UHGV virus genome: UHGV-1705587
DNA length: 20,116 bases
Origin: a virus
Strand: one strand, 5' to 3'
Positions 2,300 through 17,361 of this stretch are shown here, piece after piece (the first letter of the stretch is position 1; every line of letters begins with the position of its first letter). Both the position numbers and the translations under genes were made by a program. Under the pieces are notes generated by a model. That model was given only the letters and a program-made list of their open reading frames with translations, made no database searches and was not told where the DNA came from.

Positions 2300-3768
2300 T
2301 GGCACGAAACAAGCAATCCTCTCAGCGAACGGCACAGGCCACCGCTGACGGCTACGAGAACTTCGTCGCCCGCGTTGGGATGCAGACGCCTAACCAGCAT
2401 TCAGCATCGACCTACCGGGCGAACTTCACCAGCCGCAACCGCATGCTGGTGGAATGGTCATATCGCGGTTCGTGGGTTATCGGTGAAGCGGTCGACGCTA
2501 TCCCGGACGATATGACCCGAAAGGGCATTCGCATCACTTCGGAGATTGACGCCAAAGACCGTGGCACCCTCGAAGCGCAACTGGATGAGTTGCAGATCTG
2601 GGATGCGCTGAACGACGTGCTGAAATGGTCGCGTCTCTACGGCGGCGCGGTCGGCTTCATCATGATCGAGGGGCAAGCACCAATGACCCCGCTGCGACTC
2701 GAAACCATTGGCGAGGGCAAGTTTAAGGGCATTCTCCCGCTCGACCGCTGGATGATTAACCCGGTGCTGACACGCCGCATTAAAGAGATGGGGCCGGACC
2801 TCGGCAAGCCTGAGTTTTACGACGTGGTGACCACCGCAACGGGCATTCCGGCCTGGCGCATCCATCACAGCCGCCTGATCCGCTTTGATGGCGTCACGCT
2901 GCCATTCCAGCAGAAGATGACCGAAAACGAATGGGGAATGTCGGTTGTAGAGCGTATCTGGGATCGGCTTACTGCGTTCGATAGCGCCACTGTCGGCGCG
3001 GCGCAGCTGGTCTATAAAGCGCATCTGCGTACCTATAGCGTGGAGAAGTTGCGCGAGCTTATCGCGCTTGGAGGCCCGGCGTTCGAAGCGTTGCTGAAGA
3101 ACATCGACCTGATCCGCCAGTTCCAGAGCAATGAAGGTATGACGCTCATGGACTCGCGGGATAAGTTCGAAACCCACCAGTACAGCTTTAGTGGTCTGGA
3201 TGACATTCTTTCGCAGTTTGCTGAGCAGATCAGCGGTGCCGTTGGTATCCCGCTGGTACGCCTGTTCGGTCAATCCCCGAAAGGCTTCTCTACTGGTGAT
3301 GCAGACCTCGCCAACTATTACGACCGGGTGAGCTCATTGCAGGAGCGCCGCTTACGGCTGCCGATGCGCCGGATACTGGACATTATGCACCGCTCGGAAC
3401 TCGGAAAGCCGCTGCCGGACGATTTCACGTTTGAGTTTAACCCGCTATGGCAAATGTCAGACGTTGACCGATCAACGGTGGCCGTAAACACCACCAACGC
3501 GATCAGTACCGCGCTGGGCGACGGATTGATGACGCGTAAGGCGGCGATGACCGACCTGCGCGAAAACTCTGACGTCACCGGCATCGGGGCATCCATTACC
3601 GACGAGGATATCGAGAATGCCGAAGACGAAGCGCCGCCAGGCATCGGCGAACTTGGCGACAAACCGCCAGAGCCGCCAGGCGGAGATCCGATATCGAACG
3701 AGCCTACGGCAGATAGCGCGGGCGGTCGGGGATATCGTAAATGGTCGCTACGATGGTTCAAACGATAG
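2299..3768 (+). CDS. Phage portal protein
   Basis: 489-aa ORF immediately after the terminase large subunit with start/stop overlap; size and position typical of a portal. The C-terminal roughly 50 codons overlap the next ORF in another frame, so the true C-terminus is uncertain. Confidence 0.7.
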   Translation: MARNKQSSQRTAQATADGYENFVARVGMQTPNQHSASTYRANFTSRNRMLVEWSYRGSWVIGEAVDAIPDDMTRKGIRITSEIDAKDRGTLEAQLDELQIWDALNDVLKWSRLYGGAVGFIMIEGQAPMTPLRLETIGEGKFKGILPLDRWMINPVLTRRIKEMGPDLGKPEFYDVVTTATGIPAWRIHHSRLIRFDGVTLPFQQKMTENEWGMSVVERIWDRLTAFDSATVGAAQLVYKAHLRTYSVEKLRELIALGGPAFEALLKNIDLIRQFQSNEGMTLMDSRDKFETHQYSFSGLDDILSQFAEQISGAVGIPLVRLFGQSPKGFSTGDADLANYYDRVSSLQERRLRLPMRRILDIMHRSELGKPLPDDFTFEFNPLWQMSDVDRSTVAVNTTNAISTALGDGLMTRKAAMTDLRENSDVTGIGASITDEDIENAEDEAPPGIGELGDKPPEPPGGDPISNEPTADSAGGRGYRKWSLRWFKR

Positions 3769-4404: not shown

Positions 4405-5637
4405 ATGAAATATTTTTTCAATACCCGGCTGGGGGAAACCCGTTATCAGCTGGCTGACGGCTCGCTGCTGTGCAAAGACGTGCCGATAGGACGAACAGGT
4501 AAGCAGCTCTATGGTGCTGATGACCTGCCAAAACTGAAACCCGATAAGTTCGGTGAAATAGTCGTAACGCGCTCTCCTGAGCAGGTATTCCATCCGGCCA
4601 CGCTCGCCTCATTCGAAGGGATGAGCATCACGATCCTGCATCCTGAAGATGAAAACGGAAATGTGCGGCTGGTCAACCCCGAGAACTGGAAAGAGCTTGC
4701 GGTCGGGCATCTTCAGAATGTCCGGCGCGGGACGGGTGTGCAGTCTGATTTGATGCTGGCTGACCTTATCGTCAAAGACGAAAACGCCATTCAGCTGATC
4801 GAAGATGGCCTGCGCGAAGTGTCGTGTGGCTATGACGCGGAATATAAGCAGACTGAGCCGGGTAAGGCTGAGCAGGTTGATATTACCGGAAACCATGTGG
4901 CTCTTGTCCCTAAAGGCAGAGCCGGAAATCGTTGTGCAATTGGAGACAGAGACACAATGGCAAATCAAAAGAAAAGCTGGTGGACCCGCATGCGCACGGC
5001 CATCAAAACGGGTGACGCTGACACCATGAACGAACTGCTGGACTCTGCGCCAGCGGCGGTAACGGGTGACGAAGGGGATCTGCCGAGCGGCGTTAACCTC
5101 AACATTAACCTTTCACCGCAGCAACCATTGCCGGACAAAAAGCCGGAAATGGGCGGAGAGCCAACCGGCGACGGCGAGGACGATATCAAAACCTTGCTCA
5201 AAGCCCTGCTGGCTAAGCTCGAAGGAACTGCGACGGGCGATAACGACAATAAGCCTGACGGCAAAGATAACAAAGACCCTACCTGCGACGGTGAGGACGA
5301 CGAAGAGGAAACCACGATTACCGGTGACGCTGCTTATCGTGCCGAAGTTATCGTTCCGGGTATCGATCTGAGCCGTAAGGTGAAACCGACCGCGTTCAAA
5401 CGTGATGTGCTGTCCGCCGCTGACAAAACACTGGTTCGCCAGGTTGTCGGTGATGCAGATATCCGCAAATTGCCCAAGCAATCGGTCGATATGGCGTTTA
5501 ACGCCGTGTCTGAGATTGCCAAAGGGCGAAACACCCGCAGCACCACGGGCGATGCACAACGTCCAAATATGGGCATGACCAGCATCGCTTCCCTGAACAA
5601 ACAAAACGCCGACTTCTGGTCTAACCGCAAAGGATAA
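4405..5637 (+). CDS. Putative head scaffolding / prohead protease-like protein (DUF2213-like by position and composition)
   Basis: 410-aa ORF between the morphogenesis and capsid genes. Contains a long acidic low-complexity segment (GDGEDDIKTLLKALLAKLEGTATGDNDNKPDGKDNKDPTCDGEDDEEETT) typical of scaffolding proteins. Family name is from memory of similar gene clusters, not a search. Confidence 0.5.
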   Translation: MKYFFNTRLGETRYQLADGSLLCKDVPIGRTGKQLYGADDLPKLKPDKFGEIVVTRSPEQVFHPATLASFEGMSITILHPEDENGNVRLVNPENWKELAVGHLQNVRRGTGVQSDLMLADLIVKDENAIQLIEDGLREVSCGYDAEYKQTEPGKAEQVDITGNHVALVPKGRAGNRCAIGDRDTMANQKKSWWTRMRTAIKTGDADTMNELLDSAPAAVTGDEGDLPSGVNLNINLSPQQPLPDKKPEMGGEPTGDGEDDIKTLLKALLAKLEGTATGDNDNKPDGKDNKDPTCDGEDDEEETTITGDAAYRAEVIVPGIDLSRKVKPTAFKRDVLSAADKTLVRQVVGDADIRKLPKQSVDMAFNAVSEIAKGRNTRSTTGDAQRPNMGMTSIASLNKQNADFWSNRKG

Positions 5638-5641
5638 TCCA

Positions 5642-6145
5642 ATGACTGCATATCTGTACCGGATGCCTGTTGGCATTGCCGGGGCTATCTCTCGCCCGCA
5701 GGACTTAACCGTCGAACCGGTGATCCTTAAATCCGCTAACGCCTTCGCTGCCTATGGTCTGGCTGGCAAATACGACGCTGACGGCTTTTTCGTGCCGCTG
5801 GCGGACGGTGACACCGCCGACAAGGTGAAGGGGATCTACGTTCGTCCGTATCCGACCACATCACAGCCAGACATGGTTCGCCAGGTGGGGACGGATAAGA
5901 ACTTCCCGGGTGACGCCATGAAGCGTGGCTACATGACCGTTAATCTCGGTTCTGATTTTGATGCCAGCACCATCAAAAAAGGCGACCCGGTATACGTTGT
6001 CGTCTCCACTGATGAATCCATCAAAGTGCCGCTGGGCGGCTTCATGTCCACGTCCGTCAGTGGCAAAAACGTGGCGCTGACCAACGCCGAATTCACAGGG
6101 GCCGGTGACGCTAACGGCAATGCAGAAATCTCCTGGAAGATTTAA
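5642..6145 (+). CDS. Hypothetical head protein (possible decoration/cement protein)
   Basis: 167-aa ORF with AGGA RBS, immediately upstream of the major capsid gene. No recognisable motif; called on position and coding quality only. Confidence 0.45.
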   Translation: MTAYLYRMPVGIAGAISRPQDLTVEPVILKSANAFAAYGLAGKYDADGFFVPLADGDTADKVKGIYVRPYPTTSQPDMVRQVGTDKNFPGDAMKRGYMTVNLGSDFDASTIKKGDPVYVVVSTDESIKVPLGGFMSTSVSGKNVALTNAEFTGAGDANGNAEISWKI

Positions 6146-6156
6146 GGAACAGACGA

Positions 6157-7098
6157 ATGATTACTTTTGATCAGGCAACCGTTGATAGCTCTGGTGCCTT
6201 TCTCATCGGGGAGCTGGAGCGACTCGACCAGACGCTGAACCTGCCGCTGGTGGGTTACACCTGGACCCGCGATATTCAGCTGCGTGAAGACGTTTCTATC
6301 GCAGATGACATTTCCAGCTGGACTAACACCAGTTTTGGCGCTGCTGGTACTGGCGCAAATCCGAATGGTAAAAACTGGGTAGGCAAAGACTCCACCGCTA
6401 TTGCTGGCGTGAACGTGGATATCAGCAAAGACGGCAATCCACTGAACCTCTGGGGTATGGAACTGGGCTGGACCGTTGTAGAGCTGGCAGCAGCTCAGCA
6501 GGTAGGTCGCCCGATTGATACCCAGAAGTACGACGGGATGCAGCTCAAATGGCAGATGGATAACGACGAGCAGGTTTACATTGGCGATGATGCGCTCGGC
6601 CTGAAAGGGCTGGCAAACCTTGTCGGTGTGACGCTGAACAATGCGCCGAAGACCTGGGCGAACTCAACCAACGACGAGATCCTCGATAGCGTGAACAGCA
6701 TTCTGTCTAATGCCTGGGCAGCATCCGGTTATTCCATCGTGCCTTCTGATCTGCGCATTCCGCCAGAGCAGTATTCACTGCTGGCGAGCCGTAAGGTTTC
6801 CGAAGCGGGTAACCAGTCACTGCTGACCTATCTGGCTGTGAACACTATCGCTTTCCACCAGAACGGCGTTCCGCTTGAAATCAAAGCGGTCAAATGGCTG
6901 AAAGGGCGTGGGGTTGGCGGTAAAGACCGTATGATCGCCTACACCAACGACAAGAAATACGTGCGCTATCCGCTGGTGCCGTTGCAGAGCGTTCCTGTCC
7001 AGTATCGCGGTCTGTACCAGATTGCGACCTACTACGGCAAGCTCGGTGCGGTTGAGCCAGTGTACAAAGAAACCCTGTCCTACGTGGACGGTATCTGA
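6157..7098 (+). CDS. Major capsid protein
   Basis: 313-aa ORF with AGGAA RBS, located after the scaffold-like gene and followed by tandem stops (TGATAA) and a GC stem with GAAA tetraloop (7111-7122). Position and size fit a major capsid protein of the DUF2184-type head module; assignment is by synteny and recollection. Confidence 0.6.
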   Translation: MITFDQATVDSSGAFLIGELERLDQTLNLPLVGYTWTRDIQLREDVSIADDISSWTNTSFGAAGTGANPNGKNWVGKDSTAIAGVNVDISKDGNPLNLWGMELGWTVVELAAAQQVGRPIDTQKYDGMQLKWQMDNDEQVYIGDDALGLKGLANLVGVTLNNAPKTWANSTNDEILDSVNSILSNAWAASGYSIVPSDLRIPPEQYSLLASRKVSEAGNQSLLTYLAVNTIAFHQNGVPLEIKAVKWLKGRGVGGKDRMIAYTNDKKYVRYPLVPLQSVPVQYRGLYQIATYYGKLGAVEPVYKETLSYVDGI

Positions 7099-7139
7099 TA
7101 ACCAGAACGACCCCGAAAGGGGCCAGAAGGAAACTGAAA

Positions 7140-7550
7140 ATGGCGAAAGAAAAGCTGGTTACCATCCATGTTCACACCCCGTTTACGCTGACGCTCGGCG
7201 ATCAGTCAAAAAGGGAGTTTGGCCGGGGACGGCATAACGTACCGGAAGAGGTCGCGTTGCACTGGTTCACCCAGGCGCACTCTGAGCTTTCCGAAAGCGT
7301 GATTAGCGACACCGATGATCTGCAACCCATTATCGACAGCCTGCAAGCGCAGATTGCCGACAAAGATAAGCAGATTGCCGACAAAGATAAGCAGATTGTC
7401 GATAAAGATCAGCTGATTGCCGATCTGAAAGAAGCGCTGCTCAAGCTGCAAGAGCAGAACGACAGCCTGCAAGCGCAGATTGCTGCCGCCCAGACTGGCG
7501 GTAATGGGGCGAAAGATGCCAAAGAATCAAAGCCTGCCAACAGTAAGTGA
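7140..7550 (+). CDS. Coiled-coil protein with tandem heptad repeats (possible capsid or neck accessory protein)
   Basis: 136-aa ORF with AGGAA RBS. Central region encodes [28 protein letters not shown] from four 21-nt tandem repeats, flanked by two copies of DSLQAQIA. Lysine-rich C-terminus. Confidence 0.55.
7350..7433 (+). repeat. Tandem 21-bp repeat, about 4 copies with the last two degenerate, flanked by a 23-bp direct repeat at 7335-7357 and 7461-7483
   Basis: cagattgccgacaaagataag occurs at 7350-7370 and 7371-7391, then cagattgtcgataaagatcag (7392-7412) and ctgattgccgatctgaaagaa (7413-7433). gacagcctgcaagcgcagattgc occurs identically at 7335-7357 and 7461-7483. Confidence 0.85.
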
Positions 7551-7923
7551 TTTTCGCCGCGACTTCCCGCAGTTTGCTGACCCTGCCAAATATCCCGAAG
7601 CGCAAATCGAGTTTCGTCTGAATCTGGCCGATGTGCTGCTAAGCGAAAAGGTCACCGGCAAAAAGTTGTTTCCGTATTTTGCCGAGTTGTTCGTTGCGCA
7701 CTACATGACGCTTTGGGCGGCAGATAGCCGGGCGATGCTGGTTGGCGGCCCGGGCGGTTCAACCAATGGTGTTCAGTCCTCTAAGTCCGTTGACAAGGTA
7801 AGCGTCAGCTATGACACCAGCGCGACGCTAAACCCTGACGCAGGCTTCTGGAATAACACCCGATATGGCGCTGAATTTTATCAGCTGATCACGATGTTCG
7901 GTGCAGGCGGTCGCCAGCTATGA
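7516..7923 (+). CDS. Hypothetical head-tail connector / head completion protein
   Basis: ORF open from 7480; ATG at 7516 (or 7504) is the more likely start, overlapping the upstream gene end. Position just after the capsid module. Family (possibly DUF4054-like) is a guess from synteny. Confidence 0.45.
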
Positions 7924-8474
7924 GTTTCAAAAGCGGTGTAACAACGAGGGTGGATAACGCTAAGGCCATTCTGGATGCGCTCAGGTCGTTAACCAAAAAA
8001 GATGTGCTGGTCGGCATCCCGGAAGAAGACAGCGAGCGTGAGGATGTTCCGTTTGGTAATGCCGGGATCGGTTACGTCAACGAATACGGCTCACCAGCGC
8101 AAAACATACCCCCACGCCCGCACCTGATCCCCGGCGTTAAATCCGTAGAGGAACAGACGGTGCCGCAGCTCAAAGCAGCGGCGCAGGCTGCGCTTGATGG
8201 AAATGCGGCGGGTGCGGAAAGAGCGCTTAACCGCGCCGGAACGCTGGCCGCGAATGGCGTCAGGCGTTACATGACCATTACCGGCTTTACACCGCTTGCT
8301 GATAGCACCGTTGAAGCACGCGCACGCCGTGGGCGCAAAGGGGCAAAAGAGGAACTTGCGCGGCGCGCTGCTGGCGAGTCTCCCGGAACCGACCTGGTGA
8401 AACCGCTAATTGACACCGGGCAATATCGCAGAGCCATTACCCATGTTGTGAGGGATAAAGATGCCGACTCTTGA
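7920..8474 (+). CDS. Hypothetical neck / head-tail joining protein
   Basis: 184-aa ORF; ATG overlaps the upstream stop (ATGA). Basic Arg-rich C-terminal region. Placed between head and tail modules. Confidence 0.45.
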
Positions 8475-14480: not shown

Positions 14481-14786
14481 ATGCAGTTTAACGAAATACC
14501 GCTTTCTCCTGACAATCAGCAGTTCCGCGTTTTGCTGGGCAATACTACGTATACGCTCAGGATCATCTGGCGCGATGCGGCTGGTTGGATTATGGACGTG
14601 ATGGATAGCGGCGGTGCCGCGCTTCTCTCTGGCGTACCTCTACTGACCGGCGTGAACCTTTTACGACAATTTCCACAGCTTGGCATTGATGGTGCGCTGG
14701 TGGTGGCGACCGATAAGGGCGCACCAGACGAGCCCACCAAAACCAACCTCGGCACATACAGCCACCTCATTTTCGTGCAGGAGTAG
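14481..14786 (+). CDS. Hypothetical small tail/baseplate protein (P2 gpX-like position)
   Basis: 101-aa ORF with GGGGGA RBS between the gpU-like and hub-like genes. Confidence 0.45.
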   Translation: MQFNEIPLSPDNQQFRVLLGNTTYTLRIIWRDAAGWIMDVMDSGGAALLSGVPLLTGVNLLRQFPQLGIDGALVVATDKGAPDEPTKTNLGTYSHLIFVQE

Positions 14787-14788
14787 AA

Positions 14789-15853
14789 ATGTCTCTTAAC
14801 TGGATGCGCCATTTTGAGTTGCAGCTGTTGGACCAGAACGGGCAGGGTATTTCCCTGTCTGATTTTAAGGTCACGTTCCAGATCGAGTGGGCAGATACAC
14901 GCTGGCCGCGCGTGGCAAACGTGAAAATTTACAACCTTTCGACCGATACCACGAACAAGATACTGGGGCAGGAGTTTGCAAAAATTCGCATCATTGCCGG
15001 GTATGACGGTATTGCGCCGGATGTTGATGCGAGCCAGGTTGGTGTCGCCCGGGAGATTTCACCAGACCAGGTAGGGCAGGTGAACGGTCAGAACTACGGC
15101 CTGATATTTGACGGTGATATTCGCTTCACCGTCACCGGGAAGGACAACATCACCGATTCCTGGGTGCTGATTCAGGCCATCAGTAACCACGAAGCGTTCC
15201 TCTACGCGACTACCATCACCACGCTTGCCGCTGGCTATACCGTTGCGGATCTGCACCGGGCGACGATGCAGGATTTCAACGCGTTCGGCGTGACACAGGG
15301 CATTACCGGCGATTTTCCTGATACCGTGTTTCCTCGTGGCCGCGCGATTTACTCATCCAGCCGCAACGTGATGGATAATATTGCTGCGCAGTGCAAAGCG
15401 ACATGGCAACTGGTGGATGGTCAGGTCCAGATGGTGCCGGAGGATAAATATATTCACGAAGCCATTGTGTTGAATGCCAATACTGGCCTGATCGGTATGC
15501 CGCAACAAACGATGGGCGGCGGAGTAAACGTGCGGTGCCTGATAAACCCAAACATCCGTATTAATGGTCTTATCCAGCTCGATCAGGCTTCGGTGTACCG
15601 CGCCACGCTCGGCAAGAGCGAAATAGCACAGTCGCCCGGGCGTATCACCGAAACAGAAGAGAACGGCAACCGTGTGCTGACCGGCACGACGTCACAGGCT
15701 GCCAGCATTGCGACGGATGGCGTTTATATCGTCAAAGCTATCGACTATACTGGCGACACCAGAGGTCAGGCGTGGTACATGGATTTGATGTGTTTTGCGC
15801 GTGGTGCTCGTGAAATGGTTAGTCAGGACACGCTTAAAAAATGGCAGGTATAA
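14789..15853 (+). CDS. Baseplate hub protein (P2 gpD / late control D-like)
   Basis: 354-aa ORF with AGGAG RBS, last gene of the FI-FII-E-T-U-D-like block. Size and position match a hub protein. Confidence 0.55.
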   Translation: MSLNWMRHFELQLLDQNGQGISLSDFKVTFQIEWADTRWPRVANVKIYNLSTDTTNKILGQEFAKIRIIAGYDGIAPDVDASQVGVAREISPDQVGQVNGQNYGLIFDGDIRFTVTGKDNITDSWVLIQAISNHEAFLYATTITTLAAGYTVADLHRATMQDFNAFGVTQGITGDFPDTVFPRGRAIYSSSRNVMDNIAAQCKATWQLVDGQVQMVPEDKYIHEAIVLNANTGLIGMPQQTMGGGVNVRCLINPNIRINGLIQLDQASVYRATLGKSEIAQSPGRITETEENGNRVLTGTTSQAASIATDGVYIVKAIDYTGDTRGQAWYMDLMCFARGAREMVSQDTLKKWQV

Positions 15854-15854
15854 G

Positions 15855-16205
15855 ATGGGTAAGGCCAAACTTCTAATTTGTGGTGTTCTTTTATCAGTTG
15901 TCGGCACGTCAGAGGCCTTAGCTGATACTCAGTGCGGGCCGTATCGCCTCACTGCGGGCAAAGAAGGACTAATGCTTATTAACGGGGTAAAACCTGAAAC
16001 GCAAAAAATGTCTTTTCTCAAGTCTAAAGATGACTACCAAAACATGAAAGCAGAATGGATGGTTGCAACCGACCAACCCGGCCGCTGGGTTGGGCTTGAG
16101 TACATCAAGCGCAACGGCAAAGCCATTCTCAACGCACAGTGGTTGCAAGCCAGCATGGATTCGCCGCGTCAGTATGCAACATACGACTGCGTAAAAATTA
16201 AATAA
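15855..16205 (+). CDS. Moron gene A: small Sec-secreted (periplasmic) protein of unknown function
   Basis: 116-aa ORF starting 1 nt after the hub stop (the longest ORF from 15795 would overlap the hub gene). N-terminus MGKAKLLICGVLLSVVGTSEALA-DTQ looks like a signal peptide with an AxA cleavage site. Mature protein about 93 aa with two Cys (one near each end). About 47% GC by hand count versus 55-60% in flanking phage genes. Confidence 0.55.
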   Translation: MGKAKLLICGVLLSVVGTSEALADTQCGPYRLTAGKEGLMLINGVKPETQKMSFLKSKDDYQNMKAEWMVATDQPGRWVGLEYIKRNGKAILNAQWLQASMDSPRQYATYDCVKIK

Positions 16206-16216
16206 GCGACTCATCT

Positions 16217-16447
16217 ATGAAGATAACTATTTTTTCTGATGATCATGTCCAGTCAGTTGATGCCCCTGATGGAACTTTAAGCTGGACCATGCTGAACTCT
16301 GATGGCTCCAAATCAGAGGCTAAAGTAGAAATGTATGAATATCGAGAATTATCGGTTCATAAATTCTGTTATATCGCTCGCTTTAGGGACGTTGAAATTA
16401 GTGAGATGCGACATGCCGCTGTTAAACATGGCTATGACGTAAATTAG
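16217..16447 (+). CDS. Moron gene B: small cytoplasmic protein of unknown function
   Basis: 76-aa ORF 11 nt after gene A, no signal peptide, weak RBS. About 39% GC by hand count, the most AT-rich coding segment in the window. Followed by a 176-bp AT-rich spacer and an intrinsic terminator. Confidence 0.45.
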   Translation: MKITIFSDDHVQSVDAPDGTLSWTMLNSDGSKSEAKVEMYEYRELSVHKFCYIARFRDVEISEMRHAAVKHGYDVN

Positions 16448-16585
16448 TGCAATATTAGGATCGCAGAGAGCAGATTTTTTGATTATCATTTATTTGAGCA
16501 TTTGACTGGGTGTTATACACCAAGCGCCACCCGAAAGGGGAAAGGGAGACGATAAGCCGTTTCAGGTTAAATGCTCACATCTCAT

Positions 16586-16612
16586 AAGGTCGCCATTGTG
16601 CGGCCTTTTTTT
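16586..16612 (+). terminator. Rho-independent terminator downstream of the moron cassette
   Basis: Stem GGUCGC (16588-16593) pairs with GCGGCC (16600-16605), one G-U wobble, 6-nt loop, optionally extended by two A-U pairs, followed by T7 at 16606-16612. Located 11 nt upstream of the spike gene ATG. Confidence 0.5.
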
Positions 16613-16623
16613 ATGGGGTTTTT

Positions 16624-17361
16624 ATGCCAATTCCAACTCAATCACAGATCGGCGGAGAGCAGCAGACCGCGCAGGCCATAGCCGATTCGGTGTCTACCCA
16701 GATGCGCGTAGCGATGCCCGGCATCATTCAGTCGTTCGATCCTGATACTGTTACCTGCACGGTAGAGGTGGCGCTACGCGGTATTGTTGGCGACGGCTCC
16801 ACCGAATTAAAACCGCTGGTGGATGTGCCGGTTATCTTCCCGCGCGGTGGCGGTTGCACACTGACCTTTCCGGTTAAAGAAGGCGACGAGTGCCTGCTGA
16901 TCTTTGCCGACCGTTGCATCGATTTCTGGTGGCAGAGCGGCGGCGTTCAGGAGACCGTCGACCCGCGTCAGCATGATTTATCGGATGCGTTCGCCATCGT
17001 TGGCCCGCAGTCGCAAGCACAAAAAATCGGTGGAATCAGTACCGGAGCAACGCAGCTGCGCAGCGACGATGGGAGCACGTATTTTGAGCTCAACCCCACC
17101 ACGCAGAAAATTAAAATTGTAGCGCCAGGCGGCCTGGATGTTATCGCGCCTGAATCGACATTCTCAGCGAAGGTAACGATTACCGGTCTACTCACCTGGA
17201 TGGGGGGGATGGTCGGCAGTCTTGCCAGCGGAACAGCGGCGAAAATTACTGGTGCGATTGAATTCTTTGGGACGCTTAAATCTAACGGTAAATCTATTGA
17301 TGACACGCACACCCACAAAGGCGTTCAGACGGGTAGCGGCAATTCTGGTGGGGTAAACTGA
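16624..17361 (+). CDS. Baseplate central spike / baseplate assembly protein V-like
   Basis: 245-aa ORF, first gene of a V-W-J-I-H-like block. Gly-rich C-terminus with an HTH (His-x-His) motif (nt 17308-17316), reminiscent of the metal-binding apex of gpV-type spikes. Confidence 0.55.
   Translation: MPIPTQSQIGGEQQTAQAIADSVSTQMRVAMPGIIQSFDPDTVTCTVEVALRGIVGDGSTELKPLVDVPVIFPRGGGCTLTFPVKEGDECLLIFADRCIDFWWQSGGVQETVDPRQHDLSDAFAIVGPQSQAQKIGGISTGATQLRSDDGSTYFELNPTTQKIKIVAPGGLDVIAPESTFSAKVTITGLLTWMGGMVGSLASGTAAKITGAIEFFGTLKSNGKSIDDTHTHKGVQTGSGNSGGVN

Follow-up and report, generated by a model that had tools for sequence, protein, structure and literature searches.

The DNA analyzed here (20,116 nt of UHGV virus genome UHGV-1705587; hereafter the window) covers the late region of an E. 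coli prophage whose virion genes are of the E217/phiTE type. It runs through TerS, TerL, portal, MuF, head genes, sheath, tube, tape measure, Dit-like and plug genes to the baseplate hub, two small genes that we call A and B, the spike, the sheath initiator and baseplate J. The question raised by this locus is what gene B is. A reading made from the letters alone (the sequence-only reading) had left even its reality uncertain, and had offered it either as a partner of gene A or as an independent small factor. Our preferred explanation as a whole, held with reasonable rather than strong confidence, is that gene B is real and constitutes a mobile late-operon moron cassette lying behind gene A. 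Coordinates are collected in Table 1, where loci compared with the window carry L numbers.

Table 1. Features of the hub-spike region of the window, and the genomic contexts in which gene B was found.
Feature	Position or loci	Strand	Description
Baseplate hub gene	14789-15853		
Variable cargo slot between hub and spike	15805-16600	+	Similarity to Omnitron interrupted
Gene A	15855-16205	+	116-aa secreted protein with signal peptide; phrog_3443 at E 1.7e-45
Degenerate ribosome-binding region	16197-16216	+	SD pairing -2.1 kcal/mol; proposed coupling/re-initiation site
Gene B	ATG 16217 to TAG 16447	+	76-aa ORF; 8.8 kDa, pI 5.4, acidic, cytoplasmic
Structured RNA motif, gene B 3′ UTR	16495-16577	+	Long outer stem enclosing three hairpins
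Intrinsic terminator closing the A-B unit	16586-16614	+	AAGGTCGCC-ATTGT-GCGGCCTT plus T7 run
gp138-type spike gene	16624-17361		176-nt spacer after gene B
Context: hub - gene A - B - spike	window, L001-L004, L007-L017		
Context: MuF-like head protein - B - Pa193_gp24-like gene	L024, L035, L036		
Context: Q antiterminator - B - holin	L005		
Context: Rz - B - small terminase	L006, L021, L022, L039, L040, L041		
Context: small terminase - B - large terminase	L023, L037, L038		

Gene B had been described as the most deviant coding segment in the window, at about 39% GC, and it is: its GC content (0.394, with GC3 0.351) is the lowest among the 25 tabulated ORFs, followed by gene A (0.473) and TerS (0.481), against 0.540 for the whole window and GC 0.50-0.58 and GC3 0.55-0.72 for the virion genes. 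All 231-nt segments with GC at or below the gene B value start at 16143-16326 and overlap the ORF, and homologs stay at GC 0.38-0.42 regardless of context. The earlier statements that the protein has no signal peptide and no recognizable motif also hold. Its hydropathy profile gives no signal peptide or transmembrane segment (maximum Kyte-Doolittle 19-residue mean 0.08, GRAVY -0.49), and searches of Pfam, PHROG, NCBIfam and PADLOC with the window protein returned no family match. The identical protein occurs on 19 contigs, deposited as an E. coli hypothetical protein.

A word-indexed search found 9 clusters of gene B at 90% identity and a profile search found 30, which are 32-96% identical to the window protein. 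Homologs from these approximately 30 clusters are 72-76 aa long, two longer start calls excepted, and the extra relatives from an exhaustive HMM search of 1.84 billion representatives are all of the same length as gene B. Named hosts are E. coli, Salmonella, Enterobacter, Raoultella, Serratia, Yersinia and Edwardsiella, and a further copy lies in a lambdoid phage genome deposited as a 42.6-kb Klebsiella “plasmid”. No DNA-level copy was found in 5,426 complete E. coli genomes, and no protein-level match in 50,697 phage records or in the GTDB species representatives.

The alignment has 23 invariant columns among the first 10 sequences, 9 of which are still invariant after adding four distant relatives (down to 33% identity). 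Conserved stretches are the N-terminus MKI(V/T)IF and YEYRELSVHKFAYIAxFR. The ORF is intact in the window, and its closest relatives are 96% and 89% identical at the protein level. For window vs. L013, dN/dS is 0.12 (17.5 synonymous and 11.5 nonsynonymous differences), with 0.16 for window vs. L007, 0.09 for L007 vs. L013 and a range of 0.09-0.20 over the comparisons; at deeper splits synonymous sites are saturated and the proteins are still 48-64% identical. Frame conservation and synonymous excess, the check that the sequence-only reading had proposed, thus both appear across relatives. The doubt about reality is settled in favor of a gene: the family is conserved under purifying selection, and from comparative data gene B is almost certainly a genuine, selectively conserved protein-coding gene.

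The sole frame-affecting change found in the family is the loss of 7 nt close to the 3′ end of the homolog in the Enterobacter lineage L001-L004 (6190-6225), which converts the conserved C-terminal HGYDV to QMFN and affects only the last five codons. This variant, from Enterobacter asburiae and others, is the most widely sampled one (36 collection blocks). Because of the deletion, some copies of gene B may be decaying.

The weak Shine-Dalgarno (SD) sequence noted earlier is borne out by pairing energies. With a predicted pairing to the 16S 3′ end of -2.1 kcal/mol, the 20 nt upstream of gene B rank last among 10 tail genes tested; the others range from -3.0 to -8.6 kcal/mol. mRNA structure near the start (-8.1 kcal/mol) is low but unexceptional. 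The weak SD had been taken to allow that the ORF is not translated at all. It would then be a decaying remnant, or a spacer or the 5′ part of a transcript serving the structured RNA downstream. The SD rank among the tail genes would fit such a reading, as would the frame-changing 3′ deletion in one lineage and a covarying RNA motif (described below) directly downstream in the same terminator-bounded unit. Evolution contradicts it, however, with a steady 72-76 aa, the N-terminus MKI(V/T)IF and dN/dS of 0.09-0.20 in the family, and with an intact copy here, 96% and 89% identical to its nearest relatives, whose substitutions are strongly biased toward synonymous sites (omega 0.12 against L013). 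The exact protein moreover recurs on 19 contigs. Eight of nine viral contigs with the RNA motif lack gene B, and most gene B contexts lack the motif, so the two are separable. We regard an untranslated ORF as improbable.

SD strength instead divides by context. In contexts without gene A (ten loci) the gene B SD is strong, at -6.3 to -8.6 kcal/mol, vs. -2.1 to -4.7 kcal/mol in all four A-coupled lineages, where the gap from gene A stop to gene B start is 11-13 nt (11 nt in the window, after the TAA at 16203-16205). This split, together with the short gap, makes translational coupling plausible: ribosomes terminating at the gene A stop would re-initiate at the gene B start 11 nt downstream, and it is fairly likely that gene B translation is coupled to gene A termination. 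The SD remnants behind gene A (TAGGCTGAACGTT, AAGCGAGCCCTCA, AAGCGACTCATCT) resemble the TAGGCGAGGTTGT of the free cassette, so the SD has decayed since capture behind gene A.

Gene A has a signal peptide (…SEALA/DTQ) and a conserved Cys pair, and matched no Pfam family. One homolog is annotated “STY1065/STY2022 family phage-derived protein”, a family name for which a literature search found nothing relevant. Gene A is near-universal in this phage group, and its 90% cluster counts 47 members, spread over hundreds of contigs, vs. 4 members for gene B. It occurs without gene B in L018, L019, L020 and L034 and in Citrobacter phage Omnitron; 42 E. coli genomes match the flanks with gene A, and none of the 42 matches the gene B region at the DNA level. 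Gene B for its part is found in four other contexts, at no fewer than 12 loci, where there is no gene A homolog and its sequence is still conserved. In Salmonella loci L008, L010 and L012 most of gene A is replaced by a 241-aa lipoprotein-like ORF (5201-5926) with lipobox LTSC and no family match, and approximately the last 10 codons of gene A remain before an intact gene B.

The sequence-only reading had suggested that gene B could be a partner of gene A, as its chaperone, regulator or immunity protein, and had named co-occurrence with gene A homologs as a check. The two genes are adjacent and co-oriented with a gap that suggests coupled translation, and the pair recurs across several prophage lineages. 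Yet co-occurrence proved inconsistent, not that of a two-gene module: each gene occurs without the other, which leaves the partner reading unsupported. Gene B is conserved where gene A is absent and intact in the Salmonella loci that lost most of it; gene A is far commoner and is followed by unrelated cargo in relatives; and gene A is periplasmic by its signal peptide, gene B cytoplasmic. We give a dedicated partnership very little credence. The other suggestion, an independent small factor, is supported by the four late-operon contexts that lack gene A, and we conclude with high confidence that gene B is an independent mobile cassette and no partner of gene A.

The site that gene B occupies in the window is itself variable. 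The closest deposited phage is Omnitron, with 96% identity over 81% of the window; blastn aligned 14701-15804 and resumed at 16600, and the gap in Omnitron holds the gene A homolog and then an unrelated 128-aa secreted protein. E. coli prophages whose flanks are 81-98% identical likewise carry gene A and then other cargo: Phd/Doc, an inverted DUF4236 gene, or a pair of 185-aa and 70-aa ORFs, the former membrane-like. This interchangeable cargo between gene A and spike marks a cargo slot. The terminator hairpin that ends the cargo differs from one to the next and always abuts a common TTTTTTTATGGGGTTTTTATG junction just before the spike start; all these phages therefore have a terminator in the middle of the baseplate operon.

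Variable hotspots of prophages, of the P2/P4 type, hold defense or toxin-antitoxin genes. The present slot resembles them in that hub/gene A and spike bracket interchangeable cargo, with Phd/Doc in one relative. Gene B differs from the cargo of such hotspots; it is a single 76-aa protein without PADLOC match and without a recognizable effector or sensor domain.

In all five contexts of Table 1 gene B is co-oriented with the surrounding late genes. The corresponding head and packaging sites of the window itself are empty, with TerS and TerL 2 nt apart and 14 nt from MuF to the next gene. Judged by these arrangements, the gene B cassette has been inserted independently at at least five intergenic late-operon positions in temperate phages of Enterobacterales. 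The mobile unit would be composed of a short leader with SD, the ORF and usually an intrinsic terminator.

The moron concept was defined for HK97/HK022 and applied to the P22-like “ant moron” (PMC2629481). Like those morons, gene B is an insertion between conserved neighbors, present in some phages and absent from others, with base composition unlike that of the surrounding phage genes and a terminator on its 3′ side (in the window; absent in L023 and L037). Like them also, it probably has no morphogenesis or lysis role, and its slot shows fast flux of unrelated cargo. It departs from them in three respects: a promoter of its own could not be demonstrated, the cassette occupies five late-operon positions in different phage types, and its leader/terminator frame can carry another ORF (DUF551, in L028). 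With the promoter reserved, gene B behaves as a moron, and it is moron cargo from a narrowly distributed, uncharacterized small-protein family.

Both ends of the cassette were compared across copies. On the 3′ side of gene B in the window the terminator hairpin (16586-16607) and its T run end 10 nt before the spike gene. A terminator of the form AGGTCGCC-loop-GGCGGCC plus T run follows gene B in L005, L006, L021, L022, L024, L035, L036, L039 and L040, and belongs to the lambdoid and head-module contexts; the terminator of the L001/L008 group is of another type, and no terminator was found after gene B in L023 or L037/L038. On the 5′ side, conservation upstream of the ATG in contexts without gene A comprises the GAGGTT SD and little else, with a leader of approximately 80 nt common to some copies.

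L028 and the gene B copies of L005/L035 share a frame composed of the approximately 80-nt leader, the GAGGTTGTT SD and an AGGTCGC…GGCGGCCTTTTTT terminator. In L028 (reverse strand) a 71-aa DUF551 ORF lies within this leader/terminator frame, just downstream of the RNA motif; the cassette frame can therefore hold different cargo. The arrangement suggests a reusable cassette frame, or boundary sequences that exchange small ORFs.

A promoter conserved across gene B contexts or in the cassette leader was looked for and none was found, and promoter-like matches around gene B copies are not above shuffle expectation. The window has a weak promoter-like TTTATA-17-TATACT at 15723-15751, inside the hub gene, with 1.9 such sites expected by chance. 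An extended -10-like TGGTATACT lies upstream of gene B in L021, L022 and L039. Through such sites gene B may have a promoter of its own. In L005 two elements lie between the Q gene and gene B, one promoter-like and one resembling a terminator hairpin; by position alone they read as a putative PR′ and tR′. Because no promoter is conserved, gene B is always co-oriented with late genes and the L005 copy is placed after Q, we favor, without great confidence, transcription of gene B together with the phage late genes; its transcription would be late and antitermination-dependent.

A classical lysogenic-conversion moron would behave otherwise: expressed in the prophage from its own promoter or that of gene A, insulated by a terminator, and of benefit to the lysogen, for example by exclusion of superinfecting phages. 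The foreign composition of gene B agrees with this, as do Phd/Doc and other cargo in the same slot of relatives and the TGGTATACT upstream of three copies; the terminator directly after the A-B unit fits such a moron as well as it fits a late gene. But no promoter is common to the contexts, with promoter-like matches at or below shuffle expectation, conserved cassette sequence 5′ of the ATG is essentially only the SD, and gene B of L005 directly follows the terminator-like hairpin downstream of Q. We consider lysogenic conversion unlikely, and retain late expression as the preferred reading.

Between the gene B stop and the terminator is a structured RNA motif of approximately 83 nt with a nearly invariant core of approximately 45 nt (AAGCGCCACCCGNAAGGGRAAAGRGAGAYGATAAGCCGTCTCAGG). 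Its minimum free energy has a z-score of -3.49 vs. shuffled sequence. Twelve aligned copies share a consensus fold of 26 pairs with 97.8% of cells paired, vs. 24-49% in slid controls; 9 pairs have changed on both sides, and none of 500 shuffles reached this. Besides the window the motif is in L007, L013-L017, L023, L025-L033, L037 and L038. In the window and L023 it lies downstream of gene B; in L037 it precedes gene B, and in L028 it precedes the DUF551 cassette. The core occurs in 9 IMG/VR contigs, including the eight without gene B; away from gene B it is typically in intergenic DNA near terminase genes, the flanks having been inspected in part.

No family of Rfam 15 matched the motif. Two candidates were rejected: Phe_leader, a sub-threshold match caused by the stem-plus-terminator architecture, and DicF, a fragment match on the other strand. 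The element is possibly a phage RNA motif not described before, and cassettes of the gene B type may use it as a boundary for recombination. Separately, isrJ-like matches below the gathering score of 37 lie approximately 340 nt upstream of the motif in L026 (1445-1515, + strand, 35.3 bits) and L025 (5986-6056, - strand, 30 bits).

An AF2 model of the gene B protein made with 14 sequences has pLDDT 92.9 and pTM 0.77, with strands at residues 2-7, 10-15, 22-26, 32-44 and 47-55 and a helix at 61-71; no structural neighbor was found in PDB or BFVD. By its sequence and model, the product is soluble, mildly acidic and beta-rich, without enzymatic motif. Residues 17-32 (PDGTLSWTMLNSDGSK) match the propeller blade hairpin “DGTLxWxxLxSDGTK” (hhalign 90% over 16 columns), a hairpin shared with FG-GAP and PQQ-type beta-propeller blades. 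Unlike those propellers, gene B has one copy of the 16-residue motif and no tandem blades, and its model is a five-strand sheet plus helix; no Pfam repeat family reached threshold with the window protein or any of the 14 members. Matches to large proteins (E 6e-35 to a 4717-aa protein, and the designed propellers “Cake” and “Scone”) were rejected as family assignments, because their scores sum the 16-residue hairpin over many repeats and do not reflect whole-protein homology.

Six of 14 gene B family members match phrog_3425 collinearly with marginal scores (best E 3.7e-4), a match that carries no functional information. This family has the same length as gene B (76 positions), and residues 3-70 of P0005 align to its positions 5-73; unlike these relatives, the window protein itself does not match it. 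The 14 members gave only sub-threshold noise against Pfam.

Since there is no catalytic motif and conservation is strongest on one long hairpin, gene B would act by binding a macromolecule. Most plausibly its protein would bind another protein stoichiometrically through its most conserved surface, the Y-E-Y-R-E-L-S-V-H-K-F hairpin. No consistent partner gene was found across contexts, and no defense or toxin-antitoxin model of PADLOC, Pfam or NCBIfam matched. The role is probably accessory, because some phages have gene B and others lack it although they share their virion genes.

A virion-associated role would contrast with this, gene B being an internal protein that is packaged and ejected, or a chaperone specific to one assembly module. 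T4 IPI* is a small packaged anti-restriction protein. Gene B may resemble such packaged proteins in size and acidity, and it is always in morphogenesis, packaging or lysis operons, co-oriented. However, it is found across head, tail, packaging and lysis modules and is missing from close relatives whose virion genes are the same, which argues against a module-specific structural role; furthermore none of 50,697 deposited phage genomes gave a match. A virion or assembly protein is accordingly quite improbable in our estimate.

More speculatively, gene B would be an accessory in phage-host or phage-phage conflict and not in virion assembly. We lean toward conflict because of Phd/Doc in the slot of a relative and anti-defense-like cargo near other copies, and a conflict-type binder is a tentative proposal, held with low confidence. 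Against it count the missing PADLOC match, the lack of a structural neighbor and the lack of a consistent partner gene. A more ambitious version, clearly unlikely at present, has the family as a new-fold, late-expressed conflict effector that spreads as a minimal SD-ORF-terminator cassette via conserved boundary sequences. It may be, for example, an inhibitor of a host defense that senses late proteins (terminase, portal, tail), or a small protein that is packaged and ejected, and the covarying UTR RNA motif may be one of the recombination boundaries. In a bolder variant, the single propeller-blade-like hairpin may let the 76-aa protein self-assemble into a ring.

For annotation, gene B is now settled as real and a wrong functional link to gene A is removed. 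An uncharacterized moron in an E. coli prophage is by itself a common finding. Gene B is a clean example of a tiny gene captured at five late-operon places, with its SD decaying behind another gene, and is useful for understanding how morons move and become integrated. Its confident predicted structure without neighbors in PDB or BFVD and a slot with toxin-antitoxin cargo in relatives make it a reasonable, though unproven, choice when small phage proteins are screened for effects on defense or exclusion. A function for the adjacent RNA motif, or activity of the protein as a new anti-defense or exclusion factor, would raise the interest.

The anti-defense-like cargo near gene B homologs was seen in two loci. 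L037 has an AcrIF11-type ADP-ribosyltransferase gene with a 63-aa companion (2436-3109, - strand) between Rz and TerS, and in L039 a portal gene with an Acb1 domain match (6912-8228) lies near the gene B homolog.
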